Assembly: GCA_051362555.1 (NCBI GenBank)
Contig: CM120641.1
Span: 16,306,001-16,370,000, forward strand
Direction: 5' to 3'
From: Lingula anatina
Lineage: Eukaryota; Animalia; Brachiopoda
Length of the DNA stretch: 64,000 nucleotides
Positions within the stretch are counted from its first letter, which is position 1. Every line of letters begins with the position of its first letter. The notes beneath the pieces were generated by a model. That model was not told the origin of the DNA, made no database searches, and saw only the letters and a program-made list of their open reading frames with translations. A program made the position numbers and the translations under genes. Shown piece after piece: positions 5,597 to 64,000 of this stretch.

Positions 5597-6457
5597 ATGT
5601 CACTAAGACATGTTGGGGCCAGATGTTCAGTCAGCTTTTGTCAGGTAAAGTCATTTTCTTTGTTATCATTAATGACTTCTGATATCTTTTTCAAAAAAAC
5701 TCCAACAATTTAAAATTGTAAATATTATAAGAATTTTAATGTTATAATGTATTTTTTTTCGATTGCTATTAACATTACATCATTCTGTAAAATTAAAAGC
5801 CATTAAAAGCCTCCGTGATTGATTTCATACATGACATGATGTACACTTTTTCCAAGACGATTTCTTGTGTTTAAATATTTTAAACCATACAAGCGTACAT
5901 CTTTCAATGCAAATGAGTTAAAAATTGCTATATTTTGTCACAGAAAATGTCTACGTGTACTACTTGTACATAACCTTAGTTTGGTATTGATTTTAATTTG
6001 AAATAGTTGTAATAGGATTATTATTATATTGTATTTTGAGTCACTTTTGAGCAGCAAAAGTAATGAAAAAGCCCTTAAAATAGCAGACAAATGAAATATA
6101 CTATCAAATTTTTAGAATATACTGAAACAGAAGCTACTTGTTTCGGGAGGTGGCAGTATAAAGACTCTAACAGTGCAAAGTAGAGCACCAGGAAAAGTGA
6201 AAGATGAAAATATGGGTTCACAGCAGAAACTGAACAGCAATGCATCTGTGGATGCAATGCCAGGGAAGGGCCCACCACCAGAACCACCAATTTACTGTTG
6301 CATGGAGGGGTGTCCTGACTGTGTATATCTGAAATACGCAAATGATCTGATTGCATATTATGAGAATGGAGGAGAGAAGGCAAAGATGGAGATTGAAAAA
6401 AATGTACAAAACCCGCACATACAGACCCGCGTGTTGAGCCAGTCTGGGCTGATATAG
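5597..6457 (+). CDS. OXLD1: OXLD1-like tandem paralog, copy B
   Basis: Exon 1 5597-5644 (MSLRHVGARCSVSFCQ|gtaaag) joins exon 2 6116-6457 in phase 0 and the frame is open to TAG. Motif PGKGPPPEPPIYCCMEGCPDCVYLKYANDLIAYYENGGEKAK is collinear with copy A. Confidence 0.8.
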
Positions 6458-21072: not shown

Positions 21073-21653
21073 GTGAGTTATGAATATAAGGTGTATGTAC
21101 TGTATGATCATTATAAGAATTATAAACCACAGCGTTAGCTACTGGAAACCGGTAGCTCATGTAGACCTATACTATAGATAACAGGGAAACATACACAAGA
21201 CAGTGCCTTTATATTCACAAAATCTAAAGAAATGTGTACTTTATTAATGGGATTTTTTTTCGATAGTCTGTTGATTTATCATAGTAATCACTAATGAATT
21301 AAGGTAAATGTACTTCTTGATTTATCCGAACAAATCCAAAATTCCTACTGTTTTTGCCGAGTTTGCTAGAACTTGGTACTTGTAGGCTATCATGTTGTTG
21401 TTATAAGTGTTAACGTCATCACAATAGTTTGTTTGAGGTAAGAAATACCCCGTGTAAAACGAAAGATGACTAGTCTCTGTCATGTTCGTTGACGTACGGT
21501 ACCTGACACTTGACGTAGAAGAACGCCTTGACTTGCTTCGGGTATCTTAAAACAACGAGAGAGTGACTAAATCCGGATATTAAATGTAAATCTTAGACTT
21601 GCAGCAGTCTTGTATATTAGTTGTTTATATTATCTTTCAGATTCACCTACACC

Positions 21654-24944
<3,291 letters not shown>

Positions 24945-35200: not shown

Positions 35201-35739
35201 ATTTTTTAAAAATCTTTTTACATGAATCTCACTCTATTCCCCCGCCCCTTTTTTTTGCTTTGGACATCTTAACAGGTTCACTATTTGCACTTTATTCTGT
35301 TACATCGTTTCTGCTTCCCTGTTTTTGACGGTAGGGATCACATTTGTAACTATTCGTCCTTCAATCAAATCAAATCAAAACACAGAATTTCCCGTTTGTA
35401 GTTTAACAAAATACGCAAATGATATCTAATTGTGTTCTGAAAACAGTATAAATTTTCACCTGGGCATAATCCGCCATAACATGGTTTAAAATGCAACAAC
35501 TCTTGCACGGGCTTCCCGTTCACTGTACATATTCCACCTCCATAGCATTCCCGCTTGGACACCCTTAAACCATAACTGCCGCATGAGATTGAACACTCTG
35601 AGAAAGCGGACCAGTCGCTTAACTTACTGACGAGTATACCTAAAAGTGGAAGACGTATTATAACATTTGTATGCCACTGAAGTTTTCCTAAGGGGGATGT
35701 CCCATTTAAAATTATACCACTGATCTTAATGATGTTAAT

Positions 35740-35804
<65 letters not shown>

Positions 35805-36287
35805 TACACACACGTGTGCGAGAGAGTATATATCACTTTGGTGTATTACTACCTTCCTTTGGGCAATCGTCTCCTACACAATCTGTCTCTTGAAAGCTGC
35901 GCCCAGTACAATATGCGCCACCATTAGTTGGCTTAGGTTCATCGCACGATCTGGTCCTCTGCCTTAGGCCTGGGCCACACTTGGTGGTACAACCACTCCA
36001 GGCGCTCCACTTACTCCACTTGCCGTCCACGGCGCACGCACGTTTATATTTATAGCAAATCAGTGCAGACCAGTATTCATCCTAGGATAAATGAAACTAG
36101 AGGATCAGAGAGGCGATACCGCCTCCGGATATTGTACCACCAGCTGGAGTAAGCACATTCGTATGGACCCCCCCCCCCAAAAAAAAAAGGGACACCACCA
36201 CCAGTCTTGTGCTTGACAAGCTCTATAAAATGCAATCAACAAGAATTCTCAAAATATGCAAAAAAAAAAAAAAAAAAATAAATAAAT

Positions 36288-36319
<32 letters not shown>

Positions 36320-39300: not shown

Positions 39301-42300
39301 TTTATTTTTTAACCTCTTACCAAGTATTTCTTTCCTACAGCCGCTCTGACAGTGGCATAGGTACAGCCATTATCGACACAAGACTCTTCCAGCCACGGGT
39401 GCCTTTTGTGCATTTTCTGCAAAACGCGCCAGGCACGGAGCACTACGTATCTTTCTTTGCCTATCACAAACGAAAAATTTCACTTGAAAAACAGGTACTA
39501 AGGCCCACCAATTGAATATAAAATGTAACTGTCTATTGGGAATTAAAAACAAGGCAGCAAAGCTGTCAAATGTACAGACAACAAACAGGAAATAACTATG
39601 CACAAAATAGGCTACTGTCAATTCTGATGCAAAAGTACATTATGTTAAACTGCAAATTCAGCATCAAATTTTAATTATGCTCAACAGGTAATACCAATGT
39701 AAGTAAAATGTGTAACAAGTTCACACTTTGAAAATGTATAACTTCCAGAAAAAGAAGCCAATTAGACTGCTTTTCCAACTCAGGCTGCATTTTAGTCCTG
39801 TATTTCTTTTTTGAAAGTTTGGCAATCATAAGCAACATGGTTTTCCCATAATGGTCATCATGGCAGCAGCACCCAAAATTGTGTTTTCTTCTATTCTGAT
39901 GCCATATTACATAATTATTAACAGCATAATGACCGTTAATTTTTAATAATACAATATACGTATCATGGATTTTCAGAAAATGTGACTAGCATGGGTCTTC
40001 AAGCCCGTGGAACGTCAAAGTCACACCTTGAAAATATGTGAAAAAAAAAAAAAAAAAACGTTTAACTGGCAGTAAGAATTACCAAACAGACTGCATTGCC
40101 TACTGAAGCTGTATTTTAGTCCCATGTTTCTTTCCTGTAAGTTTGAGAACAGTAAGTGACTTTTTTTTTTTAATGTTCATCAAGGGAGCAGTGCCCAAAA
40201 TAGTTTTTTTTTCAAATTTTGATGCAATATTACATAATGTTTAACAGCATAATGACCATCAATTTTAATAATAAAATATTAGTATTATGGATATTCAGAA
40301 AATGTGACTAGCAAAGGTCTTCAGGCCCATGGAACTTCAAAGTCACAACTTGAAAATGCCAAAATGGAAACAAGACAGCAATGTTCGGAAATTTTTTTCC
40401 CAGTTTTAACAATTTCTAACATAAAACAAAATTAACAGTTTACTACCGTTTTTATATGATCAACTAAGAAAATTGATGAGATGGGAAAAATATTAATAGA
40501 GCAGCGTTAAATGTCCAATTTCTTCCATTCTGAGATTCTGAACATAGTGAATGATTGAATCTGACTAACTGCAATGATATGAGTTTATTTCCATTTTTGA
40601 AACTTTATTACACAATACACGATAACAAGTTTACCATCATTTTTACATAATCAAGTAATGATGTTGTAAAGATGCAGGAAATGCCAAACAAACACTTTTA
40701 CGTATCTTATTAACTAAAAATTGAAAGAGTTAACATGCCTAAGAATTTAATCTGAGGAAATGTGAAAAAATAGCATAACTTCCTCAATAATGGCCTGATC
40801 ATGCTGATTTTCGAACTTGACCTGCATTTTATGAATATTCATCAGCTCTGTAAATATACAGCCAAAAAGTAAAACTGCCTTCCACTAATCGTGTTTACAA
40901 TGAAAGTGCACGGCGCCGGCGCCAGCGACAGTGATGGCGACGACAGATGCAGGTGATGGCAATATGTACAGACACATCTGTACTTATTTACTGTACTGTT
41001 TGAGAACAGTAAGTGACATGGTTTGTCTTAAATGGTCATCATGGGAGCAGAGCCCAAAATAGATTTTTTCAGATTTTGATGCGATATTACATAATGTTTA
41101 ACAGCATAATGACCATCAATTTTTAATAATAAAATATTAGAATCATGGATATTCAGAAAATGTAACTAGCAAAGGTCTTCAGGCCCATGGAACTTCAAAG
41201 TCACAACTTGAAAATGCCAAAATGTAAACAAAGACAGCACTGTTCTGAAATGGTTTTTTTTTTTCATTTTTAACAATTTTTTTAACATAAAACAAAATAA
41301 ACAGTTTACTGCCATTTTTATACGATCAACTAAGAAAATTGATCAGATGGGAAAAATATCAATACAACAGTGTTAAATGTCCAATTTCCTCCATTTTGAG
41401 ATTCTGAACATAGTGAATGATTGAATCTGACAAACTGCAATGATATGAGTTTATTTCCATTTTTGACACTTTATTACACAATACACGATGACAAGTTAAC
41501 CATCATTTTTACATAATCAACTAACAATGTTGTAAAGATGCAGGAAATGTCAAACAAACACTTTTACGTATCTTATTACTTAAATAATAAGGCTATTAAC
41601 ATGCCTAAGAATTAAATCTGAGAAAATGTGAAAAAACAGCATAACTTCTAAAATAATGCCCCGATTATGCTGATTTTCGAACTTGACCTGCGTTTTATGA
41701 ATATTCATCAGCTCTGTAAATATAAAGCCAAAAAGTAAAACTGCCTTCCACTTCCACTATCTGTTTTTCTTATATTGTGTTTACAGTGTTGCATATATGC
41801 TGAACAATGAAAAAACCGCATAACTACTAAAATAGTGGCCCGATCATGCTTATTTTCGAACTTGACCTGCGTTTTAGTAAGATTGATTACTCCTGTGAGT
41901 TTCATGACAACAGGCCTAACGGTTTTCCTTAAAATGTGTTTACAAGGTTGCATATATGCTGAAAAGTGAAAAAACAGCATAACTTCTACAATAATGGCCC
42001 GATCATGCTGATTTTCGAACTTGACCTGCCTTTTATGAATATTCATCAGCTCTGTAAATATAAAGCCAAAAAGTAAAACTGCCTTCCACTTATCGTGTTT
42101 ACAAGGAAAGTGCACGGCGACGGCATCGGCATCGGCATCGGCGACGACAGACGCAGGTGATGGCAATATGTACAGACACATCTGTGTCTGTACATAATGA
42201 AGATATTTGGTAATTAGAAATTAAAAAAGGAATGCATCAAGGACCAAATTGGTCAGCGAATAAATTTTTTAAAAAGTTTACCAGGGTGTAGACTATTGAG

Positions 42301-43611
42301 AATTTATGTTCTTTGCAAGCATACGTGATCAACCAACCTTTGTTAAGCCTGCAGTTGCCAATGCATCTTTTTTTCTCGAATGATCGACCGTGACAAAATA
42401 ACCCCCCGTTCTGCGGTGAAGGATCGGCACAGGAGCGGTTCCTGCTCCTTTTTCCGGGACCACAATTGTTGCTGCATCTGTTCCAGCGGGACCACACTGC
42501 CCAACCGCCGTCAACTATGAATACAATAAATATAAAGCTGTACATTTGTTCTGTATAAATACTTGGTCTGATTCTTTTGATAATTTTTTGTAGATATCAA
42601 TAACAACTAGAATTTTTTTACCGTAACGCACCGAAAAACTGTTCTATCACGATTTATCCTAAACAATTTACAGCAAGACCTATCTTGCTTTAGGAAGTAA
42701 CTGATATCAATTTACATCGAAATTCAACACCAACCTGGACAAGACTTTGGGGACTTTTTAAAGGTACACTGGTATATATTCCAAAAACGAAGCTAAAAAA
42801 GCAAAAGGAAACAAGAAACAGATTAATGAACATATTGTATAGTGCACCTTTTCTGACATAACAGCAGCAAGAATGATAGTACCTACGACATTATGTACAA
42901 AAATGTGAATTGCGATGTGTTTGGGTTTAACTTTCATTCTGTACCCCTGTGGGACTTGGAAGTAAAACCTAAATTATTTAGAAATATTTAGTCACATATT
43001 TAATATGTGATTAAATATTTTTTAAAAGCGATCGATTATATCTCATTTGGTTTCTACCTATGGTTAGTAGAGGTTGTAGAACATCTACAAAACGAATTTT
43101 TAATTTATCTTGGCTTTACATCAAACATTCCAGTACCGTACCTTAACAATGTCTTCGACATTGTCTCTCTTCCAATGTAAAGTGGCGTTTTTACCGATAA
43201 GTATATCTGGTTTGCACATTTTCTTTTTATCAAGGCACAGTTTTCTAAACTTCACTCTGTCTGCCGGCTTCAAACTTAATAGAGCAGAGGCCATATGACC
43301 CAGCTTTTTTCGAGAATTCTTCGACTTTTGCTTGGTAGAAGCTACGACAGAATGATACACTGTCTATTATTGACGATTTACAAATATGCCTACTTTAGTC
43401 TTGTTATAAAAATAGAATTTCAAAGATGTATATAAGTAATCAAAAACTTACATAGTTAAAAATAAGTTTAGTACAAAAACATTTTACTGTATAACTGTAA
43501 ACAGCTAGCATCTTTACAGAAAGACGACTTACGTAGTTTGGCTCCTGAGGAAAGACACACGAAAATGGTCCCCCATATCAAGAGGAAAAGAAAGCGATGT
43601 TTTAGGTCCAT
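26265..43611 (-). CDS. Type-I membrane protein: signal peptide, Cys module, TSP1, Gla-like module, 7 more TSP1 (acidic linker inside), 2 LamG, Ig, TM, Ser/Lys-rich tail
   Basis: Phase-consistent exons: 43611-43533 (MDLKHRFLFLLIWGTIFVCLSSG), 43359-43142, 42768-42735, 42514-42338, 39460-39321, 36081-35853, 35639-35460, 35187-34945, 34580-34360, 33756-33522, 33196-33026, 32737-32567, 32208-32038, 31787-31525, 31318-31147, 30961-30839, 30565-30321, 30080-29780, 29001-28841, 28685-28538, 28222-28108 (TM), 27914-27837, 27708-27648, 27401-27146, 26979-26929, 26746-26527, 26307-26265 (TAG). Eight WxxWxxCSxxCG..RxRxC repeats; LamG FKGEGFL/FNGSSYL and YIGG...GFVG; Ig LRC..W..DANTGIYAC. Confidence 0.85.
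29034..29582. mobile_element. MITE with ~120-bp TIRs and 5-bp TSD (ttcat)
   Basis: caggcctacc...ggcacctaaggatcctgaattaaccggtatatcgg...cagatcgcatttcggagtatca (29034-29145) is inverted at 29470-29582. Flanks read ttcat|caggcc and ggcctg|ttcat. Confidence 0.9.
29620..29730. mobile_element. Truncated MITE remnant with aacgtt subterminal repeats ending tttgctggg
   Basis: Repeated aacgtta/acgtt motifs and a terminus that reads cccagcaaa on the other strand. Confidence 0.35.
35741..35813. repeat. (CT)n(CA)n compound microsatellite
   Basis: Read directly from the sequence. Confidence 0.95.
36357..37044 (+). mobile_element. Harbinger internal-deletion derivative nested in the HINE
   Basis: TIRs gggccggtttcacaaagcagtagttagttag / ctaactaactactgctttgtgaaaccggccc with TSD cag. 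Internal remnant MAATFLANRTARRQRRLRRFHERQNLLAYTHDDAIYERLRL resembles a Harbinger transposase N-terminus. Confidence 0.85.
37047..38180 (+). repeat. Tandem array of 8 units of 142-146 bp inside the HINE
   Basis: taggtca(a/g)aggtca recurs at ~37061, 37205, 37347, 37489, 37631, 37776, 37922 and 38068. Confidence 0.95.
39546..42197 (+). mobile_element. Second HINE-type element with head-to-tail internal duplication
   Basis: 5' aacaaggcagcaaagctgtcaaatgtacagac; 3' hairpin atgtacagacaca-tc-tgtgtctgtacat preceded by (cggcat)n. Block 40140-40985 repeats at 41000-42190. Internal ~175-bp units contain gatcatgctgattttcgaacttgacctgc. Confidence 0.75.
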
Positions 43612-47142: not shown

Positions 47143-47612
47143 ATCAAATGTGTAGTCATATCATTGTTTCAGTACCTTTTTCCCTGCACTATTGAGGGCT
47201 AGTGCTAGTTGTGTTGTAACTGTACTTTTTCCTACCCCTCCTTTCCCGGACAGTATAAGAATAACATGTTTAACTCCACCTAGGTTATCACTCTCTTCGG
47301 TGTCTGAAATAAAAGAAAGAAATCAACTGCTTACGATGGCAAAAAATATAATGCCACATCGTATGTTGATCATTATATTGTTGTACTTGAAAATAATACC
47401 CCCCCCCCCCCCAACCAAACCACCACCACCAGGAATGACTGGCATAATTCATTTACATCCAATTTTCTCCACATATCCTTTAACATAAGCAAGACACACA
47501 AACTAAAGCCAGACAGCTAGGTGAATTATCATAGCACATTATCCCAGATCTGACCGATGAATAAAAAACTTCTATCAGCTTGATAAATGAACACATGTAA
47601 CTTACCGTCCAT
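44635..47612 (-). CDS. NUBP2: Cytosolic Fe-S cluster assembly factor NUBP2 (Cfd1)
   Basis: Exons 47612-47606 (ATG GAC G), 47303-47176, ~46767-46680, 46404-~46294, 45779-45625, 45358-45248, 45064-44995, 44780-44635 (TAA). Motifs [49 protein letters not shown]. No N-terminal Cys cluster, which is diagnostic for NUBP2. Confidence 0.96.
47096..47138. repeat. (AT)n microsatellite
   Basis: Read directly from the sequence. Confidence 0.95.
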
Positions 47613-47704
47613 TCTTGACATATATCTTCGATCACGTGACTTCCGCAATATCGGCAAACACAACAACAGTGACAAGTTCCAGTGCGGTAAAACGTTTGCT
47701 CAGC
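47613..47704. promoter_or_regulatory. 92-bp bidirectional promoter NUBP2/MXRA7-like
   Basis: Divergent ATGs at 47612 and 47705. Overlapping E-box TCACGTGAC and ETS ACTTCCG at 47632-47645. Confidence 0.7.
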
Positions 47705-48248
47705 ATGCTTTTGGACAATATCTGGCTGCCTATCATCCCGTCTTTGTTGACGATTATTGCAGTTGTTTTAGGGGCCATATATTTGTACAAAAAAAGCGGC
47801 AGTGCATCGAGTAACCAACAGAAAACGGCAAAACCTGAAGACAAACCAAGATGTGAAGAACCAATCACTGCCAGTGAAGCCACTGACACTGCTACTGCTG
47901 GTGGAAAGTACAAAGAACAAGGTGAGAAAACGGCTGATATGCATCTCTTTGGCTTACTGTTGACTAAATAAATGAATAACGAAACAAAAGAAGATAGAAA
48001 GTATCACTAATTTTAGTGTATCGAAAACATTTTAGGCGAGTTTATTTATTTTTATTTATTTATTAATACATGTAGCAGTTAATAGTATTTATGATAAGAT
48101 ATTCCACAAATATTGAGGAACCGTAAAAAGTAAGTCGTTTTTTCGACTTTGTAAGCGTGAAGAAGAAGCATATCTTTCCATCGTCATTAATCATGTGCTT
48201 TTTTTTAAATAAAGATACACCAGATAATAGCTAGCTATATATATATAT

Positions 48249-48282
<34 letters not shown>

Positions 48283-50097
48283 TATATCAAGTATGAAACC
48301 CAAAATGTCATAAAAAATATGAAAATAAACAAATATAAACAAAAAGGAAGACAGATGACATGTTTCAAATCTCTGAATTCAGATAGAAAAAAGTCATAAT
48401 GGGTATGCATTCCATATTTTAAAAAATGTGATCATTCCCTTTCTAATAGCCTATTCTAGTGTCCAAAGACTATAATCCTTTTCACAAAATGAAACAGGAG
48501 AATATGGCCCTTTTAAGAAATCTTTTATCAAAAAAGGCACAGGTTATAGCAACATTGTATTTATGTTATACTATATTTGAAATTATACTCAGTATTTTGT
48601 CATTTAGTTGGCTTTAAAGACATTAATTAGACATGTCTACTTCCTTAATATGTACGTTTTGTGGATAATTGGGTTTAGATGTATTGATAGCTATATATGT
48701 ATAGCAAAGGATGTGCAAAAGGGTTGATAATAAGCTTGACAGCATGATCAGTTTCATGTCATTATTTCTCATAAATTCATTGTAAACTATGATAAGTTAT
48801 CTAGAGAATACTGGTGGTGAAACAATAGAATAGACTTCATTCATAGAAAATGCTGGATGTTTGTAAATCTCATACTAGTAACTTATAGGTACAACTTCCT
48901 GAAGACAAAGAAATAGTGTCTGATTAGTGGAAATATACTGCATGCACAGATTAGCCTTGTTGGAAAAGGAGGATACACTATTGGCTATGCCAGAGAATAT
49001 TGATATTGATTTTCATCCTAGTTGTGATCATTATTAATGATATTCCTGGAAAGGGTATATAAATATTTAACCATATTCTCATTTTTGTATTATACTTCAG
49101 TTGCTTTGATGTATTATAAAAAAGGAGTACTAATATTGCTATGTGTTGTCTAGGTTAAAGAAAAAAGGCAATTTCCAATGTTATTTGTCTATAGGTTATT
49201 GGATGGTCGATGCTATGCTTTGTATTTTACAACATCCATCAGGCTGACACCCCTTTAATTGGAGAATAAATCTCTCATGTGAAATATATATGTAAGGAAT
49301 CTGAAAAAATTATCATTTATACCGAAAAGATTCAATAAAAACACCAATGATGTCCATGGAATATTGATGACTTATTGGCATGTTTTCAAAGTCCAACTTG
49401 AAAGTCTGCCTGCTATTTCAGGTGAAAAGACTGTGTGCTATTGCAGATAAGTTTTTTTTTAGCCCAATAAAAACATTTTAACTGCACCTTGAATTTATTA
49501 ACGGCATGAAAATTGATATTTCAGTAAAAATAAAAATATTAGTTTAGATTAGCCTCAAATGATTGATTTCTAAAGTTTGTAGCCATTTCAATGACAAAAA
49601 AAAACTAACCTTCTTCAAATGTTTCAGATACAGGTCATCTTACAGCTGAGGATGAGGAAGAAAATGAAGGTAGTAACATAGAGGAGGCAGATGAGGACTC
49701 CAGTGGTGGTAAAGCAGCTCCTTACATGTGCCCCTTTATGGCCATAATGGCTGAACAGAAAGCCAAAGAGAAAAACGAAGGAAAAGCCACAACAGCTGAT
49801 ACACCTCACCAAGAAAGCCCCCACCCAAAGGGATTGTCAGATGTTCCTTGGGCCAGACAGGATGTTTATGATCCCCTGGAATACCATGCTCACACTCAGG
49901 CAGAATTTAAAAAAGTACGTTCACGCGTTGCCAGTCGGCTGATTGCTAAGGAACTCAGTGAGGAACAACTTGAAGAGGAGAAAGAAGTCCAGGAAGTGCA
50001 GATGTCGCAGATTTTTAAACTTCTGCGAGAACATGAGGAGAAATTTGGTGTGCATTCTCTTGATGAGATGCAGCAACAAATGAAACTTTACATGTAA
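47705..50097 (+). CDS. MXRA7: Matrix-remodeling-associated protein 7-like
   Basis: Exon 1 47705-47921 has an N-terminal anchor IIPSLLTIIAVVLGAIYLY; exon 2 49628-50097 joins in phase 1. C-terminus LSEEQLEEEKEVQEVQMSQIFKLLREHEEKFGVHSLDEMQQQMKLY matches recalled MXRA7 (EELEEEQRVQKEQLAAIFKLM..FG...QEQLRLY). Confidence 0.85.
48230..48281. repeat. (TA)n(TAGA)n microsatellite
   Basis: Read directly from the sequence. Confidence 0.9.
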
Positions 50098-51295: not shown

Positions 51296-54200
51296 AATAA
51301 CATAACATAACATAACATAACATAACATAATTTTATTTCACGTCAGTTTTCCAACAAGCACAACACTAGCCATAGCAGGCTAATATCACCGACAGAATGA
51401 AATAAATTAATGTGAAGTACTATAATAGTGATATAAAATTTAAATAAATAAATAATTTATTTTTATATGCAGTTGTTTTACCTGAGAAAAAATTAAAAGT
51501 ATTTAAGTGTTTAACACTATTTATTGTATAAAAGTGAGATGTTGCCTTAGAGGCTACCTGAGATTTAAAACCAGAATGCCTTTTAGGCTATACATTTGCA
51601 CACAATTCACATTTCCAGTTTGACTGGGGTGTCCAGTTTTGGACCATACCTTTAGAAGTGTCCAGATCTTTACAATTTTTCATTGATACTGGCAACATAT
51701 TCCATAGTTTAGCACCACTGTAGGCTAATGAATTTAATCCATAGCATTTTGTCCTGCAGTGCTTCTGAAGCAACTGATTTGAGTTCCTTAAGCTGTAAGG
51801 TACTTCTTTAACACTGAACAAATCCCACATGAAAGGTGGGGAGAGCTTATTTACTGATTTAAACACTTCAATTATTACAGCTCTATTCCTAGAAAGCTCA
51901 AGAGTAGATAACCCTGCTTTCTCTAGTAATGTACTATAACTAGACTCAAAATCATCATACACAAACTTTAAGGCTCTGTACTGAATGCGTTCCATCTTTG
52001 CACAATCTACAGCACCACAAAAGTTCCAAGCTAAAGCACAATAGTTAAACTGTGATAAAATAAAACATCTAAAGACTTGTAGTCTAGACATTTCATCAAG
52101 GTACTGTGAAAGTCTCTGTAACACTTTAAGTTGAGCACCTGCCTTCTTACATAGTACACTGATATGATAATGAAAATTAAGTCTTTCATCAATATTCACA
52201 CCTAATAGTTTCACATGTGGTTCTGTGGTGATATTAGCATTATCAATACTGATAGTATTCCTATCTGTAGTTTCATTTAACATAATAGCATGAAATTTAG
52301 ATGGGTTAGCCTCCATCATATTGTCTCTGAACCACTTTATGGCAGTCTCTGACTCTGTAGTTAGAGTCTCTATCACCTCCTGTCGGGTTGGGTGCATAGC
52401 GACTAGAGTGTTGTCGTCAGCATAGTTGTATAACGACGCTCTGGTGATCGTTGCGTAAATGTCATTCATGAAGACATTGAAGAGGATCGGTCCCATGATG
52501 GAACCCTGCGGGACCCCCTTTACCAGCGGTAGCCAATCACTGACATGTCCAGAGAGTTTAACCCTCTGACTGCGTGACGAAAGGTACGCCCATATCAAGG
52601 CACAACCTTTTTGCGACATGCCGTAGGCCCTGAGCTTGGCGATAATGAGCTGGTGCGGCAAACAGTCGAACGCCTTGCTCAGGTCCATTAGGATGGCTCC
52701 TGCGTGGTTGCGATTTTCCAAGGACTGCTTCCAGTCCTCGATCAAGCGAAGAAGCACATACTGGCAGTTGTATCCTCTCCTATAAGCGGCCATCCTGGGA
52801 TCCAGGATCCGTTGAAGGAAAGGCGCCAGCTGATGATGAAGTATCTTCTCCAGTACTTTGGACATAGCAGGCAAGATACTAACAGGCCTGTAGTTTTTCA
52901 TGATAAGATTGTCATCCTTCTTGAAGAGTGGCACCACTTCAGCAAGTTTGGCACCATCCGGAAATACACAGGTATCAACACACTGATTGTAGATTGACGT
53001 GATGTGGTGACTAAGGCATGTAGCTACAGGTTTCAGTAATCTCGGTGGTACACTGTCCCAACCTGTTGCCTTAGTAGTGTCCATGTCATTAATAATTTTC
53101 ATTACATCATCTGGTGTGGTATGTTCAAAAGTGAAATCACAATTGTTCATACTAGATTTGATATTTTGCACACTTGGATGATCAGTGAAGTAAGTTTCAC
53201 ACTGTTGTACAAAGTCTGTATTGGAGGTCATCCCTTGATCTAGATCAAGGTTACCCCCAATCTGCGATGCAATATTCACATAAAAATTGTTCATCACATT
53301 GGCTACTTCCTGCGGCTTAGTCTCAATGGCATTTTCTGTTCGTATCATGATGGAGTTTCCATCGCTGGACCCTTTGTTTGTGAGGAAGGGCTTTATCGTA
53401 GACCAGAAATCACAGTTTTTAGGTCCATTTCTGCACTTGGCATTGAAATAGTCCTTTATGGCCTGTTTCCTTATGCGAGTTGTACGGTTTCTTTGAGATC
53501 TGTACTTTTCCCAGTTAGCATCTGTAGGGAATCTCCTGAACTTATTTTGCAGTCGTTTTTTGTCTCGCACAGCCTTTCGTAAGGTTTTGTTCATAAAAGG
53601 AGCCTCTTTGGCTCGCACTTTGACAGTTTTCAGGGGTGCATGTTCATCCATAATCTCCCTGAGCATAGTTTGAAGAGCCCAGTAATTATCAGATGGGTCT
53701 TCAAAGATTTCACATACAGTATAGGGAATGTAGTTCACTTCCTGAATGTATAAATCCATGTTAAATTGCTTATAATTGCGATAAGTCACTGTTTTTGCTG
53801 GCAGCCTGGCAGCAAACAGTTTGAACACAACATATATCATGTCATGCGAATCACTTAATCCTGTATTCATGGTTGCTGATTTAACACATTTGTCAGCTCG
53901 GCTCACAAGTATCACATCTATAAGAGTAGATCCATGAATAGTGTGATTTGTAGGTTGTTTGATCAGCTGCTCTAAATCATACTGATCACACAAGTCTCTT
54001 AATGGCTCACCTTTGGCGTCATGTAGCAAATCGAAGTTGAGATCACCTAACACACATATGTCGGTGTAGTTACTGTGAGCTTTGTCCAAAATGTTAGCCA
54101 TTTCTTCAGTAAAGGTTGCATTTTGTAGACTAGGTGGCTTATAAGCGCACATGAGGAGATACTTTGACTTTTTATTAGGCACTACCTCCACGGTTATCAT

Positions 54201-54660
54201 TTCCACAGCTTCGGTCTCATGGCATTTCATCCGACGACAGGGTATATCCGACCTGATGTAGACCATGACACCGCCACCTTTTTCATCACGGTCTCGTCGA
54301 AACAGCCGGTAACCATCAATTCTGAACTGCTCATCTGGGAATGAGTCGTCCACCTTGGTTTCTGCTATGCCTAGTAGATCCACTGGTACTCGTCTCAGTG
54401 ATTCACGGATGTGAATTACTTTGTGGCGAAAACTGTTAATGTTTATGTAGGCAGCAATAAACCCTTTGGGATGGTCCTTTTTGATGTTATCAAAGAAATC
54501 AGTATTTTCACACTCACCATCACTACTGCTGGAGTACTGTGTACTATCCAATACTGAGTTATCAAAGAAAGAATCACTGATTGATGGCAATTGACAATTG
54601 TAGCAGTGCCAATCGCTGTCACTTGCTGATAGTCTCCCATGTTCAGCGTTAGACACAAAA
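51296..54660 (-). mobile_element. 5'-truncated CR1/L2-group (Crack/Daphne-like) non-LTR retrotransposon
   Basis: Open APE+RT frame; 3'UTR stem-loop TAGCC-tgctat-GGCTA; AATAAA followed by a (TTATG)n tail at 51330-51296. No clear TSD. Confidence 0.92.
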
Positions 54661-54698
54661 ATAAATAGTGAGAAAGCTTCATGTGCCTCAAAACACAC
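51588..54698 (-). CDS. LINE ORF2: partial PHD, apurinic-like endonuclease, reverse transcriptase
   Basis: WHCYNC PHD end; NINS, AETK, GGGV, GDLNFD, TLIDVI and SDSHD (endonuclease); NYRPVSILP, DLSKAFD, GVPQGSIMGP and YADD (RT). No stop codon over ~1020 codons. Confidence 0.95.
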   Translation of the reverse strand: MCFEAHEAFSLFIFVSNAEHGRLSASDSDWHCYNCQLPSISDSFFDNSVLDSTQYSSSSDGECENTDFFDNIKKDHPKGFIAAYININSFRHKVIHIRESLRRVPVDLLGIAETKVDDSFPDEQFRIDGYRLFRRDRDEKGGGVMVYIRSDIPCRRMKCHETEAVEMITVEVVPNKKSKYLLMCAYKPPSLQNATFTEEMANILDKAHSNYTDICVLGDLNFDLLHDAKGEPLRDLCDQYDLEQLIKQPTNHTIHGSTLIDVILVSRADKCVKSATMNTGLSDSHDMIYVVFKLFAARLPAKTVTYRNYKQFNMDLYIQEVNYIPYTVCEIFEDPSDNYWALQTMLREIMDEHAPLKTVKVRAKEAPFMNKTLRKAVRDKKRLQNKFRRFPTDANWEKYRSQRNRTTRIRKQAIKDYFNAKCRNGPKNCDFWSTIKPFLTNKGSSDGNSIMIRTENAIETKPQEVANVMNNFYVNIASQIGGNLDLDQGMTSNTDFVQQCETYFTDHPSVQNIKSSMNNCDFTFEHTTPDDVMKIINDMDTTKATGWDSVPPRLLKPVATCLSHHITSIYNQCVDTCVFPDGAKLAEVVPLFKKDDNLIMKNYRPVSILPAMSKVLEKILHHQLAPFLQRILDPRMAAYRRGYNCQYVLLRLIEDWKQSLENRNHAGAILMDLSKAFDCLPHQLIIAKLRAYGMSQKGCALIWAYLSSRSQRVKLSGHVSDWLPLVKGVPQGSIMGPILFNVFMNDIYATITRASLYNYADDNTLVAMHPTRQEVIETLTTESETAIKWFRDNMMEANPSKFHAIMLNETTDRNTISIDNANITTEPHVKLLGVNIDERLNFHYHISVLCKKAGAQLKVLQRLSQYLDEMSRLQVFRCFILSQFNYCALAWNFCGAVDCAKMERIQYRALKFVYDDFESSYSTLLEKAGLSTLELSRNRAVIIEVFKSVNKLSPPFMWDLFSVKEVPYSLRNSNQLLQKHCRTKCYGLNSLAYSGAKLWNMLPVSMKNCKDLDTSKGMVQNWTPQSNWKCELCANV

Positions 54699-55789
54699 AC
54701 TGAATGTTATTTAAATATCAGTTTTTTGCTCAAACCTTCTTTTTGATATGTACAAGAATCAGTCAAAGTAAACTCTTTTCTGTATATGAACTTTGTTTAT
54801 TTGCTCATTTAGGTGTAAAAGAAGGCAACATGGAATGGCTGTAGCTATTATGCTTATAACTGGAAAGGAATATAAAAAATACAAGATCAATGAATTGTTT
54901 TTCTGAATAAACTTTAGCCGTAAACTAATAATTTTTGGTTAAACTACCTACTGTCTTTTTGGAAAAAAAGTCCCCTTACATTATTGGTACTAGTGTCAAC
55001 AATATTAAAGTTAGGTGAAAGAACCAAGGAATAAACTTAAAATCTCCAGTAAGAAAATGAGGAAACTGATATTGCTAGGTGCGCTGTGATGAAAACTTTC
55101 TTTATCAGTTTGGTAAATTTCATTCACAAAAATGCAAATATTGTCAGACTTAAAAATAAATATTTGAAAGCTGTAAGCAACAAAATATAATGCAAGTTGT
55201 TTTGTAGAGTGCAGGAGTATGCAAGCTGTTATTTTATGATATATTTGCTTGAAGCTTTTTGCATGTAATTCTCTACATGCTGTTTATATACTGTTTGACT
55301 CCAATTTTTATACATTTAGCAAATGCTTATCTATTCCAAGTTGGCAAAGTTTAAAGCCACATAATCTGCAGCTTTTTTAGATACTCATTAATACAGCCAT
55401 GAGAATGATGGTTGAATCCAGAATGTTCAACACTGCTCTTTTAACTCTACAACATTGATTACAAGAAGTACTGATATGGGCAAAAGCTATACTCTGACAA
55501 ACTTGAGGTACTTCTTGAGTATCTTACAATGATTTTTGAAATGGCATTTCCATCAACAAAAAGTGTGTATGTGAATTCAATGAATTTTCAGAATAAATGC
55601 ATATGGGACAAAACCTGGCGTTTTCAATCTTTGTAACAAGGTCACAAAAGAAAAAAACTTCTGCAGATGCCTTCTCTTTGAATGTTATTGGTCTTGTTTT
55701 TCTTAAAGAACATTGGTTGATCCAACACATGCTGTGGATGCAAGTTTTTACTGGTACACTAAATTTTGAATGGTGTGGAAAGTAGTTTC

Positions 55790-58700
55790 TCACACAGAAC
55801 ATTCATAGACTGGAGTTGTAGGACTAGCAGGACTGACAGAAGATGATGTGGCTGACAGGTTTCTTTCAAAGTGAGAAGGAGGCTTCCTTTTCTGAAATGC
55901 AACAATAAATTGTAAAAAAAATCTTTCTTTAAATTGTTAAAAAATAACCCTTTCTTTTAAACTGACCAATAAAATGCTGTTCTTAATCAATTTTTAAAAT
56001 TCTTTTTCAAGAAAAAAATCTTTTTGACTTTTATGTATGACAGCACAACAAATTACAGCAAGACATGAGCTGGGCTCTGTTTATCAGTAAATTTCAGCCG
56101 AATGCTCAATAATATCCTAATTGGACTTTAAAATGTAAAATATTTTGTAAGTTATATTTTATTTAGGGCAGGATTTTGATTTAGATGTCTATAATTATCC
56201 AGTAGTTTGTCTGAAAGAAATTTTATTCAGGAATAAACTTGCATAAGATCTTCAGTGAACAAAATTCTGATGATAAGAATATCCCTCATACTGAAGAAAA
56301 AAAATCACTTAATATCCTTATTGGTCACTTACATCTGATTCACTGTTATTTCTCTGCTTGCTGTATGGTTGCTCTTCACATGACAGATGCCTTACCATCT
56401 GCTCAGCTGCTGCTTCAAAAGATGATGAAGCTGCTGTAGGTTTTATTGCATTGTCTGATGTCTCCCTCTGCTGAGCTGGCAAGTTTCCAAAATTGTCACC
56501 GGGTGTTTTGCCTTTAGGTGTATCCGATGGAGGAAGTCTATGAACAAAGGCACTTCCTGACGCCACCCCCTTGTTTCTTGGTGTCTCTGGCTGACTATGA
56601 GATTTTTTGTGATAGCTGCTAGCTGTAGTGCTATCCTTACCCCTTGAGCTCTCTGTTGGATATGGAGGAGGCTTATCATTGCTGTTATTGATTTTGGTTT
56701 GGCCTCTAGCAGAGGCATTGAATTTGGTATTGTTGGGGCTAGTGGTGCTTGTGTTTTTAGGTGTACTGGTCTTGGGCCTGACATCTTTGTCTGTAATCAG
56801 TTGCTCTCTCTCATCATCCTGTTAAACAGAAGCACTTTGTATAAATGTCTGATAATGAGACTGAGAAGATGAAACAACCCATTTTACAGGAAATCTTAGT
56901 AAGAAGACAGTTTTGCCATCTGAAAAAAGTTTTTCTGATTGACAATACTAGTATTACCATTATTAAATTTGTTGAAATCATGTTGTTTTTTATTACAAAT
57001 TAGGCATAAATGCTGCTTTTGAATTCACCATGCAAAGTTCACTCAGAATGCTTTGGTTAAAATTAATTCACTAGTTTCAAAATGAATCCTGAAAAATGAC
57101 AAAAATTAGACTTCTAGAAAAGCCCCAAAAGTGTTCCCTTCATTAAAACAATCAATAATGGCATCATTACACATTAAACACAGATTTCTACTGGAAAGAG
57201 ATATATTACAGTTACCATTGGTTCTGTTTCAAACACTTCACTCTCTACTGCTGACACCACTCGTAGTCTGGTCTCTAACTCGCTTTCTGTCACAGAGATT
57301 TCATTTCTTACTGAACCATTCACTGACATTGTGTCACGGGAATGTTTTCTGCGCATATTTTCCTCAATATCATTGCAGAGCTCTATATACTGGTTGACAT
57401 AATTGTTCAGAACTTGGTTTCTGTTGCTGTTCTAAATAAGATTGAGAGAAAATAATGAATATAAATGTTCACAAGCTCCTCCAGCATGCTGTTAATATGT
57501 AATTGATTAGTTTTTCACTTTACTGAAGGGCAGTAACAGTCAAATCATTCACAGTTATGTAATTTTGGAATAAAATGTAGTGTAGTAGGAAAATGCACCA
57601 GAAGCTTCCTTATGCAATAAAAAAAAAGCTTTTTGTGGTTTACTTTGGCTTAGCATCAAGATTTTTGACTTTTACAGCAGAATAAATCTATTGTTAAAGT
57701 TGCTTTATAAATTTCTAGCATCATGTGTCAAAGGGTTCAAAGAAAAGAGCATGCCAAAATAAGTTGATCAGTGATCCAAATCTTTCTATAAGGTGCCTTA
57801 GTCATTAATCAGCTATATTATTGTAAACTGTATATACTAGGCTTAAAAAAGGTTGTTTTTTGGTGCAACATTCAAAACAAAATCAACCTCTTACCCCCAA
57901 GAAACTTAAATATAACATTTTAACTTTGTAACAATAATTTATATTTGAATTTCTTGTATTTTTTATGTCCTCCCCCATAAAAAACTGGAGAAATATCAGA
58001 GGGGCCGAGTGCTTTGTCTGCCTAAACCTAGCAGTGGCTATGGAAATTCTTCATCATCAGATCCAAAGATCCCTATAAAATTGTGTTATGGACAAACTGA
58101 TTAAAGAAGATATGTGCAGGCATAAATGGGCCATATGGTACTAAAAATACAAAAGATTATACCTTTTTCAGTAAAATGAATATGAAGATGATGAACATTA
58201 ATACTGCAATCCCTGCCACTACAGCTGTGAGCACTGAATCCACTGTAGAAGGGAATCTGTGATTTGATACCATAATACTATTCTGAATGGCTACCAGACT
58301 CTGTATGGTCAAACAGCAGAGGAAAAATACATCCTGAAGTAAAAAAATTTCCTTTATACTATAAATGGATAAGTAACAAACTTTTCTGTTGGATGAAAAA
58401 AAGAGATTTTAAAAAATTCAATATTTCAAACAAGTCAATGTAAGTCACTATGGTTCAAAGTGCACATACCAAAATTAAAAACAACAGAGAGCTTCTGATA
58501 TCTAATAACATGTATATCTATCCCTTACCAGTAATGTAGTTGTTAAGAAAATGCTCAGCCTTTGAGTGATAAAGTAGTAAACAACAACCAGTATCAGGAA
58601 GAACAACATTGTTATCTCCATTCGCTCGTCTGCTTCTTGTGCATTATTTCCAAATGTTGCAAATGTAAGGAAGGTGATAATTCCCTGAAATAAAGTTTTT

Positions 58701-59156
58701 TTTCTTTTCACTCAAGTGATGGGTAATTATTATAATCAAAGTTTGTTAAAAAAATTAAAACATTTGTTTATACACAGAATGAGAGTGCTTCTTAAACCTC
58801 CGTAAAAATAAGATTTTAATTATAATGGCCTACAGACTATTAGTTATTGAATAGAATTCTATGCAGTAATAGCACAGCATATGTTACAGCAAGCAGATGT
58901 TTCCTTATAATAGTAACCACTTTCATTCCATTTGAACTTCATTCCATGTGAAATATACCAAAACTTTGAACAAATATTTCATTTTTACCATCACTAAAAA
59001 TACATTCCATATGTAGAAAGTGGGCTTTCTCTTGACAAACAACTTGATGGTGTAGTCTTCGTGTTGGAACCAGGTTGCACTGTCCATGCTAGGTTCTATG
59101 ACTGGCACCTCCTCATCCACCATTACACAGGGATTTAATTCCCACTCCGGACTGCC

Positions 59157-59187
<31 letters not shown>

Positions 59188-61711
59188 GAATAGCAGGGTT
59201 ATGGAAAGTTGTCTTTAGTGCAGTTTGTTGTGTGTTGTTCATTATATCTGAATCACACAGTTATGGAAGTATATCTTTTATATGATTTAAGAATAAAGCA
59301 TTAAACAGCTAAATCCAAGACAACAGTTGCATCTTTAAAAAGCTGTGTATTCATAATATGTAATGGGGTTTTCATGTTTTATGTCTTAAAAGTCAAATGT
59401 ATCCATCTTGTGAATATGGTAATATGCATTGACAGGAAAAGATTTTTAATAAAACCCAATCAACGAAAGTAAATAATAATCCTTTGTAATATTCTAATAT
59501 AAAACTGTAAAAATGACAATAAACATGGAGAAAACATGTTAAAATCAGCCACTGAAATGCTAAGAACTATACTTACCCTCTTTGTCTGTGGATTGGTAAA
59601 ATAACTCATCCTTCATTAATGTGTCCTTCTGGAACTGCAGGTTGTGCTGTGTCCATTCAGATGAAATATGTATAGGCAACTCCTTATGTGTAAAAAAAAA
59701 ATAAATAAAAAATTAACATTTTTGAAAAATATGTAAAATTATAATAAACAAAAAATCTGATGCTTTTCTAATAATAAACATTTTCTTATATCTTAGAAAT
59801 GCATTTGTATTAATGTGATTTACTCTTCCTACACCTCCAACAAAACTTTTGTAAATGCAATCCTTGGAAAACAGTTTTTTAAGTTGATATACTTTTGTTA
59901 CTGTGATCTATAATAAAGGGCAGCAAAAGTATCAGATATCAGGAAACATACCTGGTAGTCAATGGGATAATTCTTCACATCAAAACTGGCCTTGAAAGTA
60001 CCATTCACTCTCAAAACTAAACCGAAGAATATATATTTTCAAACAATTATGCATTGAACATTACATCATTTTTAAATCTAGTATTTAAATGAACAAGATA
60101 TACCCACCACTCCTATCATAAAAGTGATCAAACATGTACATCTATACCTACATCACATTTCCAATCTTTCTGAATATATATTTACTATAAGGTTTTTATA
60201 GTTTTTTTTTAATCGTTAAAATGACTTTTGTTAGGCACGAGAATAAGAGATCACTTAAAAAAAATCTTAGCAGTTTGTTCTCAATACATTATGTAAGATC
60301 CCATTTCCACAGACACCACTGATCAACACAGATTGATTCAACTCTGCTGGGAGTCTCAGTGAGTGCAATCAGTTAAACTATATGACATGCCTCCTCCTGT
60401 CATTGAAGAGAACACAGGAAAGCTCAGTTTAGCTGACTGTACTCAGCGATAGTCCCCTGCAGATTTGGATCGATATACGTAGTCCGATGGAGTCTATGGG
60501 AATGGGGCCTAATTCAACCTTTGAAAATGTATTAGATCATTGTAGGTTTACCCACCATGAACAACCCAGGGTATGTCACTTCTCCTGTTGTACTCCAGAG
60601 ACTTGGTCTCAGACTTGCTATAGATTTGAACTGCATTCAGCAATACTATCTTGGGGTCCCACTGCTCTGACCAGTTTACAGACTGGAGAGCAAAAGAATA
60701 TATTCAGTGATATTTTTTTTGACATAAAGGGGACATTTAAAGCCTTAATAAAAGTCATTTCCTCAATTTTTGTGGCATTAGAGCCAAGTTAAAATGATAA
60801 AATTTTAAAGATATTCATATCTAATTCTCCTTAGAAGAAAAAGCTACCAGTATTACAAAAACATCCATATAAAAATGTGCAATACAACCAGAGATCTCTG
60901 CTGCTGCAGGTACTGCGTGTTGACAGTAATTACCCTGTCCTCACTTCTACAGGTACTGTAATAAAACCTTCCCCTTATGAGTGGGATCACTGTACAAAAG
61001 ACAGATATCACACCCATTCTTATCTGGATTCTCTCTTTGTCTTTTTGTCATTGATTACATACTGTTCTTTGGTGAAGGAGGTTAATACATGCTTTTGCCT
61101 TTGTTGGTTTGTTTAATAACAGCCTATAATGCAAAAAGATATGGATGGATTTTGATAAAATGTTCAGGTTAGATCAGTAATGGACTAACTTAATATCAGT
61201 CAGATATAAAACTGGGTTCCCATGCCTAGATCGATCCATCTGGATCAGTATAACTCTCTGGGGAGTCTCACTAAATTGCTATCAACTTAACCAGCTTAAA
61301 TGTCTGTTAAGCCTACTGAATGAGTTAGGCATGACAGACAATTAAGCCGGTTAAATTGATAGCAAATTAGTGAGACTCTCCAGGAAGATAGATCGATCCA
61401 AATATCTGTGGGAATGGTCCCTAAGTGTTGATCCAATGATGAGAAGCGAGTTGTTTTGGCGGGGGGTCTGCACTTTTTGAGAGCTTTTCTAGTTGAATAT
61501 AATGATGTTTCATTGGTGTAGTAGTGAGTTGAAATATCAGTATTATTTCTGCCTAATGTCTTCATTTTATTTCGACCAACATAATTCAGGATTCATTTTA
61601 TGTGTTCTTTTTCCATTGATCCTGTACCCAGATAATGTACTATTGAAACTTTATATCAAGATCTGAATGTGATACAGCAATCCTGTTTGTCCACAGGAAA
61701 AATAAATGTGT

Positions 61712-61742
<31 letters not shown>

Positions 61743-63497
61743 GGGGGGGAATCCGTGAATAGAATAACAAAAGACAAAATTTACTACCTCCTCTGCCACC
61801 CCTCTGAGCCTTGTCTCTCTCCATGTCAGGCGCAGATAAAATTGGACAGAAAATGACTGATGCTGCTGGTCAACATCAATTGGGGTTAAAATGCAGCAGC
61901 TCACATTCACCTGCACCTATAGACAAGGAGAATGTTAAAACAGGTCATTAAACACACATCAAGGGAGAATTTGGGCAGCAAACTGATTCTACAGGTGTAT
62001 CAACTTACTGTTACTTACTATCAAATTTTCCGTATTTTTTATTTTTAACACTTCAATACAAGCATTTAACACTCATTTCAAGATTAATAACTGAATGTGG
62101 TGGAGTTAAAAAGAGTATATGCATGGTCATTTCTAGCTGTAATATATATTTTTTTCAAATTACATCCAGATCATACTGTATGCATACTTGTCAAGAATGT
62201 TAAAACAGGCCATTAAACACACATTAAGGGAGAATTTGGATAGCAAACTGATTCTACAGGTGTATTAAGTAACTGTGAGATTTTTTTCCACTTTATAGTT
62301 TGTTAAAAACACTTTAATATATTATTTCTAGTTATCAATAACTATATATGGTGTCAGCAAGAGTATATGGTCATTTCCAAGCAAATTGTTTTTTTTTTCA
62401 TCCAGAACATATTCTATGCAGATTTGGTTGAAGACTAAAGTTAATCCACAGTGTGTGTGTTTTAAATTTGGAAGCTTGTGCATACAGACACAAAAATTCA
62501 ATGAGACTTTAAGCAATTTGAAACCTTCCCTTAAAAACTTTATTTTTTCTTTTGTTAAAGCAAATAAAATATTCTATGAATCTAGAGGGGATCCTTTTAT
62601 GTTCTTAAATACAAAGTACAATATTACATCAAATTTAACTTGGTTTGACATTTGAGAGAGAGCATGATCAATGTGACACATCAATAACTGTTATTCAATC
62701 TTCAGAATGTCTTCTTTTGAAGTTTTTCTGCCCAACTTGAATTGACTTTGCTCCTGTAAACATCACAGTGAATAAATTTCACACACTATGGCATGGTGAA
62801 AAAGCTTTAAGATTATAAAGGGATGATATCATCAAGAAGAATTTCTATTCATCTTGACATGCTACAACTCACAAAGTAATTATTTCAAGTGTAAAGGCTC
62901 TTCATTTAACAAAGCAATGCAGTAAATATTACATGTGCATGTAGTTTTTAGTATTGATTTCCATCATTAATATCATATTAGATAATTTATGGAGTTTCAC
63001 TTGACAAAAACTGTTAAGTTGGCAAATCTGTACATTTAAAAATAAACTTACTAATAGTGACAGGCAGAAGTAAGACATAAAACTACAGCTTAAAGCAATG
63101 CTTAAAATGAGCTTTCAGGATCTGATATATGTACTTGTTAATTTCTTAGCCTAGTGATTATAATGACCCAGATTCTGCATTGTAACAACCTAGAAATGTC
63201 ATACCTGCAGAGCAATACATGTATATATTGGTATCTACATTTACAAGTGAGCTTTGTTTAAGCATACGCTATCCAAATGAAATGGTATCACTCATGTTTT
63301 CAACATCACTTAAACAGTAGATCCAAAGTTTTATTAATGCTACGTATACCCCAATAATTGTAATATATATTCTTCTGCAAAATAAAGAATCTCCGTATAA
63401 TATTCTTATTTACCTTCCTGTTCCTGTGAAGTTCATGTGTTGTGACAAAATCCTCTTCTGCCCCATCTGTAGGATAAATGCCATTAAATCGATCCAT
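55790..63497 (-). CDS. Cys-less (Pro-loop) pentameric ligand-gated ion channel subunit with long C-terminal tail
   Basis: Phase-consistent exons 63497-63414 (start tentative), 61916-61788, 60682-60556, 60016-59952, 59682-59577, 59155-58989, 58684-58529, 58333-58163, 57431-57216, 56818-56333, 55891-55790 (TGA). Motifs IDVD..QSFSVQFYLRLTW, WDPKIVLLN, GTFKASFDVKNYPIDYQ, EW, VKRKPTFYIWNV, and four hydrophobic helices. Confidence 0.85.
59158..59187. repeat. (ATT)n microsatellite abutting a splice acceptor
   Basis: About 10 att units next to the minus-strand AG at 59157-59156. Confidence 0.9.
60293..60512. mobile_element. Palindromic MITE remnant
   Basis: taagatcccatttccacagac and gtctatgggaatggggcctaa are imperfect inverted ends. 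Inner ctgggagtctca motif is shared with the 61.2-kb copy. Confidence 0.55.
61213..61424. mobile_element. Palindromic MITE, same family as 60293-60512
   Basis: ctggggagtctcactaaattgctatcaacttaaccagcttaaatgtctgt is inverted as acagacaattaagccggttaaattgatagcaaattagtgagactctccag; right end tgtgggaatggtccctaa. Confidence 0.7.
61706..61749. repeat. (GT)n followed by a ~24-nt G run
   Basis: Read directly from the sequence. Confidence 0.9.
61929..62400. repeat. ~265-bp tandem duplication in the pLGIC intron
   Basis: agaatgttaaaacagg.cattaaacacacat.aagggagaatttgg..agcaaactgattctacaggtgtat occurs at 61929 and ~62194. Confidence 0.85.
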
Positions 63498-64000
63498 CTC
63501 CCAGATGGCCCTGGTATCAGTGGTGACACTGAGATTCCACTACTGCTAAGTGAGACTTCACACACAACCAGTATCTTTTAAGATAGCAACAACAAAGGTG
63601 AATTGCTCCACTCAAATTCTGCCAATCTACACCCACATGTAAGGTCTATTTATAACGTCTACATCTATAACATCCCTAGGGACAATCAAGTGACCTCCTT
63701 GCGATTTAATGTCAATACCACACTCTGCTTGACATTGACTGTGACAGCAGACATAGGACTGGTACCTGTTGCAAATACAAGCATTATCTGATGATCCATT
63801 TGAAATTCATTTTCCTCTAGTAAATCCATTTAACGCTCTGGGTGAACCAGTTTTTGGACCCGAATGAATGCATTTGACTTTTATTGGAGAAATTCTTAGG
63901 TAAATGTAACTACCAGGTAGGTTGACTAGGGCTTGACTTTTAAAGATATGTTGTTTTGTGTACTACAGCACAAGCGAGTTTCTTTCAATAAAACTACTGA

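Follow-up and report, generated by a model that had tools for sequence, protein, structure and literature searches.

The gene and its transcript

We analysed a 64,000-nucleotide stretch of DNA from the brachiopod Lingula anatina (GenBank GCA_051362555.1, contig CM120641.1, forward-strand positions 16,306,001 to 16,370,000), referred to below as the window and numbered from its first letter. Its minus strand carries, from 63497 to 55790, an 11-exon gene that encodes a protein of 602 amino acids (aa) with a single terminal stop (Table 1). The gene is a real, expressed and divergent member of a known orphan clade, the Cys-less pLGICs (pentameric ligand-gated ion channels) of eukaryotes. As argued below, its subunit probably lies upside-down in the membrane.

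All introns of the model are GT-AG. The window translation is identical at 597 of 602 residues (five differences) to P0001, a 602-aa protein of Lingula anatina (RefSeq LOC106161109) that was the sole protein recovered in a search using exon 7. Raw RNA reads from seven runs with the same species label were compared with the window; at least three reads were needed for a splice joint or a loose read end to be listed. Seven of the ten introns are supported in this way, six by joints and one by a loose end matching the start of exon 3; for the remaining three the basis is GT-AG and the match to P0001. The RNA level of the gene is low. Spliced RNA with exon reads was found in six of the seven runs, and in the stranded runs the exon reads are consistent with minus-strand RNA. 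Since reads splice 56333 to 55891 (six reads), the tail motifs RHLS and RNLS are located in the same protein. Two early models of the tail, one with a stop at 56318 and one with a donor at 56396, were ruled out by the splice at 56333. Among the coding variants listed for the channel core, synonymous changes outnumber the others (at least 14, compared to at least 8 non-synonymous), and hence the gene seems constrained.

Table 1. Exons and untranslated region of the Cys-less channel gene, in window coordinates.
Feature	Position	Strand	Basis
Exon 1 ahead of the start codon (5' untranslated), containing nine upstream ATGs and six in-frame stops	63498..63855 (upper end approximate)	-	RNA depth
Exon 1 coding, 28-aa acidic leader, no signal peptide	63414..63497	-	Joint to exon 2, 17 reads, four runs
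Exon 2, first strands of ligand-binding-type domain, NVS sequon	61788..61916	-	Pfam PF02931; RNA
Exon 3, ligand-binding-type domain, conserved W-x-P, NWS sequon	60556..60682	-	Loose end and joint; alignment
Exon 4, Pro-loop lacking cysteines, YPID motif and NGT sequon	59952..60016	-	P131/D133 invariant; joint
Exon 5, ligand-binding-type domain	59577..59682	-	GT-AG, match to P0001; RNA depth
Exon 6, final strands, basic segment ahead of M1 including invariant R213, beginning of M1	58989..59155	-	Alignment, model
Exon 7, M1, M1-M2 loop (acidic), pore helix M2 (degenerate), M2-M3 loop without conserved proline	58529..58684	-	Alignment, model; joint
Exon 8, M3, short M3-M4 loop, M4, KK	58163..58333	-	Model, alignment; joint
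Exon 9, M4 helix predicted to run on to residue 397, RKHS	57216..57431	-	Model; joints
Exon 10, disordered Ser/Thr/Asn/Pro-rich tail, PPPY (56671-56660), RHLS	56333..56818	-	Joints; low pLDDT (predicted local distance difference test)
Exon 11, remainder of the tail with RNLS and SPASPTTP, stop codon	55790..55891	-	Joint 55891/56333, six reads

The first exon had been called tentative in the initial annotation. However, it is joined to exon 2 in all 17 reads (four runs) that enter exon 2, and the RefSeq model has an identical start. Above the ATG the RNA depth is low, with 6 to 10 reads up to 63599 in the two best runs and 2 to 7 up to about 63850; coverage is continuous to about 63850 in three of four runs and near zero beyond. 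No joint or loose end upstream of exon 1 is listed in the four RNA runs. Six in-frame stops precede the ATG, and those at 63548 and 63542 are unchanged by any listed allele; the latter is the TAG noticed previously 15 codons upstream. Because reads run through in-frame stops without a listed splice, a signal-peptide exon further upstream is unsupported. The leader is acidic and non-hydrophobic as described, its best 10-residue hydropathy being -0.23. Signal peptide and extracellular domain, the hallmarks of canonical Cys-loop receptors, are thus not indicated here, neither by a hydrophobic leader nor by an upstream exon in the RNA.

Two repeats were noticed in the introns. At 61200-61430 a short repeat with inverted arms is matched by RNA reads from other loci that then diverge, and resembles a miniature inverted-repeat transposable element. 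In intron 1 (61920-62400), just upstream of exon 2, there are by eye apparently two diverged copies about 270 bases apart. At the 3' end, stranded RNA of opposite orientation adjoins the gene at 55000-55609, with molecule ends piling up at 55609; it is either a convergent plus-strand transcript or a repeat.

Fold, family and features of the subunit

The product matches Pfam PF02931 with 29.3 bits (cut-off 26). An AlphaFold2 model computed from a 104-row alignment has a mean pLDDT of 73.9, with 290 residues at 90 or more. It contains the strands of a beta-sandwich (29-213) followed by four helices (215-238, 241-268, 277-301 and 307 onward), M1 to M4, the last of which continues to residue 397 before a disordered tail. 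A structure search gave 1106 PDB matches at E 0.001 or better, and its top rows are all pLGICs; the best match is sTeLIC (6fvq, E 4e-18), and GABA-A receptors are also among the top matches. By sequence, the best solved relative is ELIC (E 1.6e-08). The loop Y130-P131-I-D133 and the pre-M1 residue R213 are present, and P131, D133 and R213 are invariant across 104 sequences. Cysteines occur in the domain at positions 35, 36 and 180 alone; none flanks the loop (60002-59952), and the loop disulfide is lacking. A complete pLGIC fold with a Cys-less loop, a small M3-M4 loop and a KK pair after M4, all proposed initially, are therefore confirmed. Pentameric assembly and ligand-gated conduction are inferred from the predicted model.

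As relatives we used the best 150 of 1068 proteins from a full HMMER scan; word-based searches for homologs, using either the core or the 104-row alignment, returned the query and one unrelated-looking match alone. The named relatives are proteins of Lingula, sea urchins, starfish, amphioxus, cnidarians, a leech, flatworms and Rhodelphis. One of them, P0076, is UniRef A0A5K4EMP5, which is among the Cys-less channels of Schistosoma that PMC9874803 names. When 127 of the 150 rows were placed in a FastTree tree, built without a Cys-loop outgroup, the query was nested in a 36-row group (support 0.96) together with Lingula, sea urchin, amphioxus and cnidarian proteins. It is located on a long branch and has no close ortholog, its best relative among the best 150 of 1068 reaching 33%. 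By its sequence the gene belongs to the Cys-less (Pro-loop) clade of eukaryotes described by Jaiteh et al. (2016, PMC4795631) and Johnson et al. (2023, PMC9874803), with which, as described there, it shares an F/YPxD loop without cysteines, the pre-M1 Arg, four helices, a short M3-M4 loop and an acidic residue before M2. An atlas search likewise gave eukaryotic Cys-less-like clusters, without extra domains. Bacterial ELIC, sTeLIC and GLIC are also Cys-less and have a short M3-M4 loop.

Unlike a typical member of the eukaryotic clade, the Lingula subunit lacks the M1 and M2-M3 prolines and carries a 269-aa part after M4. M1 has no proline at the ELIC position, and Ser270 occupies the M2-M3 position at which 106 of 108 relatives have proline; according to Table 1 of PMC4795631, both prolines are frequent (77% and 88%, respectively) but not absolute. 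The pore helix deviates even more. Among 108 rows it is the only M2 without all four marks of the family (T/S 6', T/S 10', K/R 15' and P 23'). It retains R 0' and L 9' and is otherwise a bulky hydrophobic helix, the most degenerate of the 108. The likeliest reading of this sequence is an accessory or silent subunit. The description of the gene as an intracellularly gated channel is tentative, since no ligand is known and all four M2 marks are missing.

The first 60 or so residues after M4 are predicted to continue the M4 helix. The Ser/Thr/Pro-rich tail of about 270 aa was found as described, including PPPY, RKHS, RHLS, RNLS and SPASPTTP. The motifs taken as signs of a cytosolic tail add little. 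The basophilic sites exceed chance, with 15 [RK]xxS/T sites compared to 8.5 in shuffles (P 0.008, one of five motif tests). PPxY, in contrast, is not conserved: it was found in one of 108 family tails, that of the query (chance P 0.036), and was rejected as family evidence. Sequons (N-X-S/T, the motif for N-glycosylation) in the query tail are at chance (7 compared to 5.1 expected).

Signal peptides, charges and sequons among the relatives

A signal-peptide-like start is missing in 128 of the 137 relatives that include strand beta-1; the lack of a signal peptide is thus shared within the family. Signal peptides were called by a hydropathy heuristic and inspection. Ten rows were flagged and eight of them judged to be signal peptides, two being rejected by eye (amphipathic helices starting at residue 18), and one incomplete row was added by eye. 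The resulting nine signal-peptide-bearing relatives served as controls; they are mostly metagenomic proteins and presumably prokaryotic in origin. All bacterial pLGICs carry an N-terminal signal peptide, as stated in PMC549065. The nine controls fall on one side of a single branch (FastTree 0.90) with no row lacking a signal peptide among them, and 118 such rows are located on the opposite side. Named models without a signal peptide come from echinoderms, amphioxus, cnidarians, an annelid and flatworms. The leaders of the 128 relatives have a median length of 59 aa; 34 are at least 100 aa long, up to 910 aa, and 12 are shorter than 15 aa and possibly incomplete.

Two further observations concern the leaders. 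Many relatives without a signal peptide (P0002-P0077) have an amphipathic helix of heptad-like pattern directly ahead of the domain, and in the protist-like P0098, P0123 and P0127 the N-terminal stretch appears ubiquitin-like by eye; neither gave a Pfam match at E 1e-4.

Charges were compared in 116 rows with complete helices, comprising 108 without a signal peptide and 8 controls (34 rows were left out). The M3-M4 loop has a net charge of +2.4 in the controls (positive in 8 of 8) compared to -1.0 in the rows without a signal peptide (positive in 21 of 108). No difference was found for the pre-M1, M1-M2 and M2-M3 charges. After M4 the controls end almost immediately (median 1 aa), whereas the other rows continue with a median of 56 aa and have 4.3 Lys or Arg within the first 15 residues. 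The controls thus differ from the Lingula subunit in ending right after M4 and in their basic M3-M4 loop. An excess of Lys and Arg on the ligand-binding side is observed in 101 of 108 rows without a signal peptide compared to 1 of 8 controls, and in the query 7 such residues are on this side compared to 2 on the other. Since basic residues mark the cytosolic side of a membrane protein (positive-inside rule), this displacement suggests that the cytosolic side is swapped.

Sequons do not accumulate in the domains of the 108 rows (93 compared to 107.6 expected, 52 domains having none), nor in the leaders (70 compared to 74) or tails (92 compared to 95). They are enriched in the M3-M4 loops, with 39 compared to 24.5 expected in all 124 measurable loops (1 of 2000 shuffles). 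The 14 loops of at least 30 aa contain 28 sequons compared to 15 expected, and 10 compared to 3.9 after removal of five related flatworm-clade rows; this reduced set is weaker at loop thresholds of 20 and 40 (118 and 136 of 3000). The same 14 proteins have no sequon enrichment in leader, domain or tail. Because the long loops have several origins in the tree, we regard the M3-M4 sequons as the most independent evidence. Judged by this pattern, the loop that is cytoplasmic in canonical receptors bears a luminal signature in the Cys-less clade. The number of cysteines in the domain is odd in 55, even in 48 and zero in 5 of the 108 rows; no position exceeds 32 of 108, and a conserved pair was not found. 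Cysteine pairs in the 14 long M3-M4 loops (even and non-zero in 6, odd in 4, none in 4) were not used.

Orientation in the membrane

From these patterns it is probable that the subunit, which has no signal peptide, is inserted upside-down. Its domain, leader and post-M4 tail would then be cytosolic, and the loops M1-M2 and M3-M4 would face the lumen or the outside. The original suggestion that both termini and the ligand-binding domain are cytosolic is supported mainly by the absence of signal peptides in the family, the reversed loop charges and the M3-M4 sequons. The probable inverted orientation would be a clade-wide property and not special to the Lingula gene. Without a signal peptide, the 215-residue domain would be made and folded in the cytosol. 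M1, basic before and acidic after, would serve as the initial signal-anchor and keep its N-terminal side cytosolic; the later helices would alternate, leaving the basic post-M4 helix and the tail cytosolic. More tentatively, the family may form pentamers whose gating or tuning would come from within the cell, through a small molecule, an ion or a partner protein of the cytosol. A cytosolic ligand of this kind is plausible. The divergent Lingula copy, having lost its polar pore lining, may be accessory or silent beside conventional paralogs such as P0002.

A bolder version, to which we give even chances, is that all Cys-less pLGICs of eukaryotes, those of protists as well as those of amphioxus and parasitic flatworms, descend from one that flipped once on loss of the signal peptide. 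A second messenger, metabolite or ion would now open these channels from the cytosolic side, in the plasma membrane or in an organelle, with the Lingula gene as a regulatory subunit. To our knowledge, no characterised pLGIC senses anything but the outside of the cell.

Several points weigh against an inverted subunit. The evidence on orientation consists of sequence patterns, with signal peptides called by heuristic and eye, and the control set is small (8 to 9 mostly metagenomic proteins of presumed prokaryotic origin). All contrasts map to a single branch, and P values therefore overstate independence. The low charge after M4 in the controls is due in part to their ending at this point. For M1, the charge difference is negative in 101 of 108 rows without a signal peptide but also in 7 of 8 controls; it was dropped as a group discriminator and carries weight only in combination with the missing signal peptide. 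In the tests on sequons and cysteines, no canonical eukaryotic receptor served as positive control. At the 5' end the RNA depth is just 2 to 10 and halves above 63600, with nine upstream ATGs. No fused cytosolic signalling domain (EF-hand, kinase) was found in 149 relatives at E 1e-4. In the query itself, the M3-M4 loop has no sequon, and the domain has the three sequons pointed out initially (NVS, NWS and NGT at N32, N74 and N118; 1.05 expected, P 0.07), at positions common to just 3, 3 and 4 of 108 rows. Finally, the channel part of P0033 is preceded by a hydrophobic segment, collagen and a C-type lectin domain, and its ligand-binding-type domain would lie outside if the gene model is real. 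We suspect a fused gene model, as the close relative P0015 lacks those domains.

Some of these points would fit a canonical orientation without a cleavable signal peptide, which we consider improbable. Here M1 as a type I signal-anchor, or another route, would move the N-terminal domain into the lumen of the endoplasmic reticulum, and the channel would sense the outside. The domain and tail sequons of the query, its canonical fold and coupling residues and the extracellular-type domains of P0033 are in line with this. As described in PMC3784385, type I signal-anchors can translocate N-terminal domains, and planarian members of the clade are reported in mechanosensory neurons (PMC9874803). However, according to the same account (PMC3784385) such anchors require positive charges after the helix, whereas the M1 flanking charges are reversed in 101 of 108 rows. 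Leaders of up to 910 aa, sequons enriched in M3-M4 loops rather than in domains, leaders or tails, and domain cysteines unpaired as often as paired also argue against it.

It is very unlikely that the Lingula copy is a decaying or non-channel paralog whose orientation has no functional consequence. The loss of all four M2 marks, the long branch without close ortholog and the low expression would agree with decay, but the 602-aa frame is intact, its RNA is spliced in six of seven runs, listed core variants are mostly synonymous, and the Pro-loop, pre-M1 Arg, 0' Arg and 9' Leu are retained. An incomplete gene model, with a signal peptide from an exon beyond the window, is hardly credible: the window extends just 500 bases above the ATG, and the low RNA depth with a step at about 63600 and the upstream ATGs leave room for it, but in two runs 6 to 10 reads span the in-frame stops and no loose end is listed, every joint into exon 2 comes from this exon 1, the RefSeq start is identical, and the 128 relatives also lack a signal peptide.

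A precedent for an inverted orientation is given by the pores of ionotropic glutamate receptors and potassium channels, between which a channel module was flipped in the membrane during evolution. There the fold is unrelated and the pore module is inverted, whereas in the Cys-less clade the whole receptor with its sensor domain would invert. Animal Cys-loop receptors (GABA-A, glycine, nicotinic) have the same fold as the Lingula subunit, together with a signal peptide and a glycosylated extracellular domain. Their Cys-loop contains a disulfide and their long M3-M4 loop is cytoplasmic (PMC549065), while the long M3-M4 loops of the Cys-less clade are sequon-rich. The passages on the clade in PMC4795631 and PMC9874803 place the domain outside the cell and contain nothing on signal peptides or orientation. 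Those on Cys-less channels in an octopus preprint (10.1101/2025.04.02.646353) and a diatom review (PMC11085791) mention neither. In PMC13174522 signal peptides were predicted for Cys-less sequences of molluscs, which may affect how new the idea of inversion is. The literature searched contained no report of inverted pLGICs, but in it subscription journals were sparse.

If the clade is indeed inverted, the gating machinery of pLGICs works in either orientation, and the orphan Cys-less channels (PMC4795631, PMC9874803) gain a testable role. Screens with bath-applied ligands would address the wrong side, the cytosolic face being the ligand side, and selectivity motifs and drug sites of Cys-less channels would have to be read in reverse.

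Other features of the window

An apparently intact open frame of 1040 aa (51588-54710, minus strand) resembles the endonuclease and reverse transcriptase reading frame of a CR1/L2-type long interspersed nuclear element. Two similar open frames on the plus strand (3775-4194 and 6116-6457) share the motif PPEPP-x-CC-xxGC-xxCV and are likely a tandem duplicate; they resemble the Oxidored-like domain. Exons at 21621-24120 (plus strand) resemble a tektin, and those at 31513-42596 (minus strand) laminin-G and thrombospondin-type repeats. A small membrane protein encoded at 47591-50097 (plus strand) resembles MXRA7.

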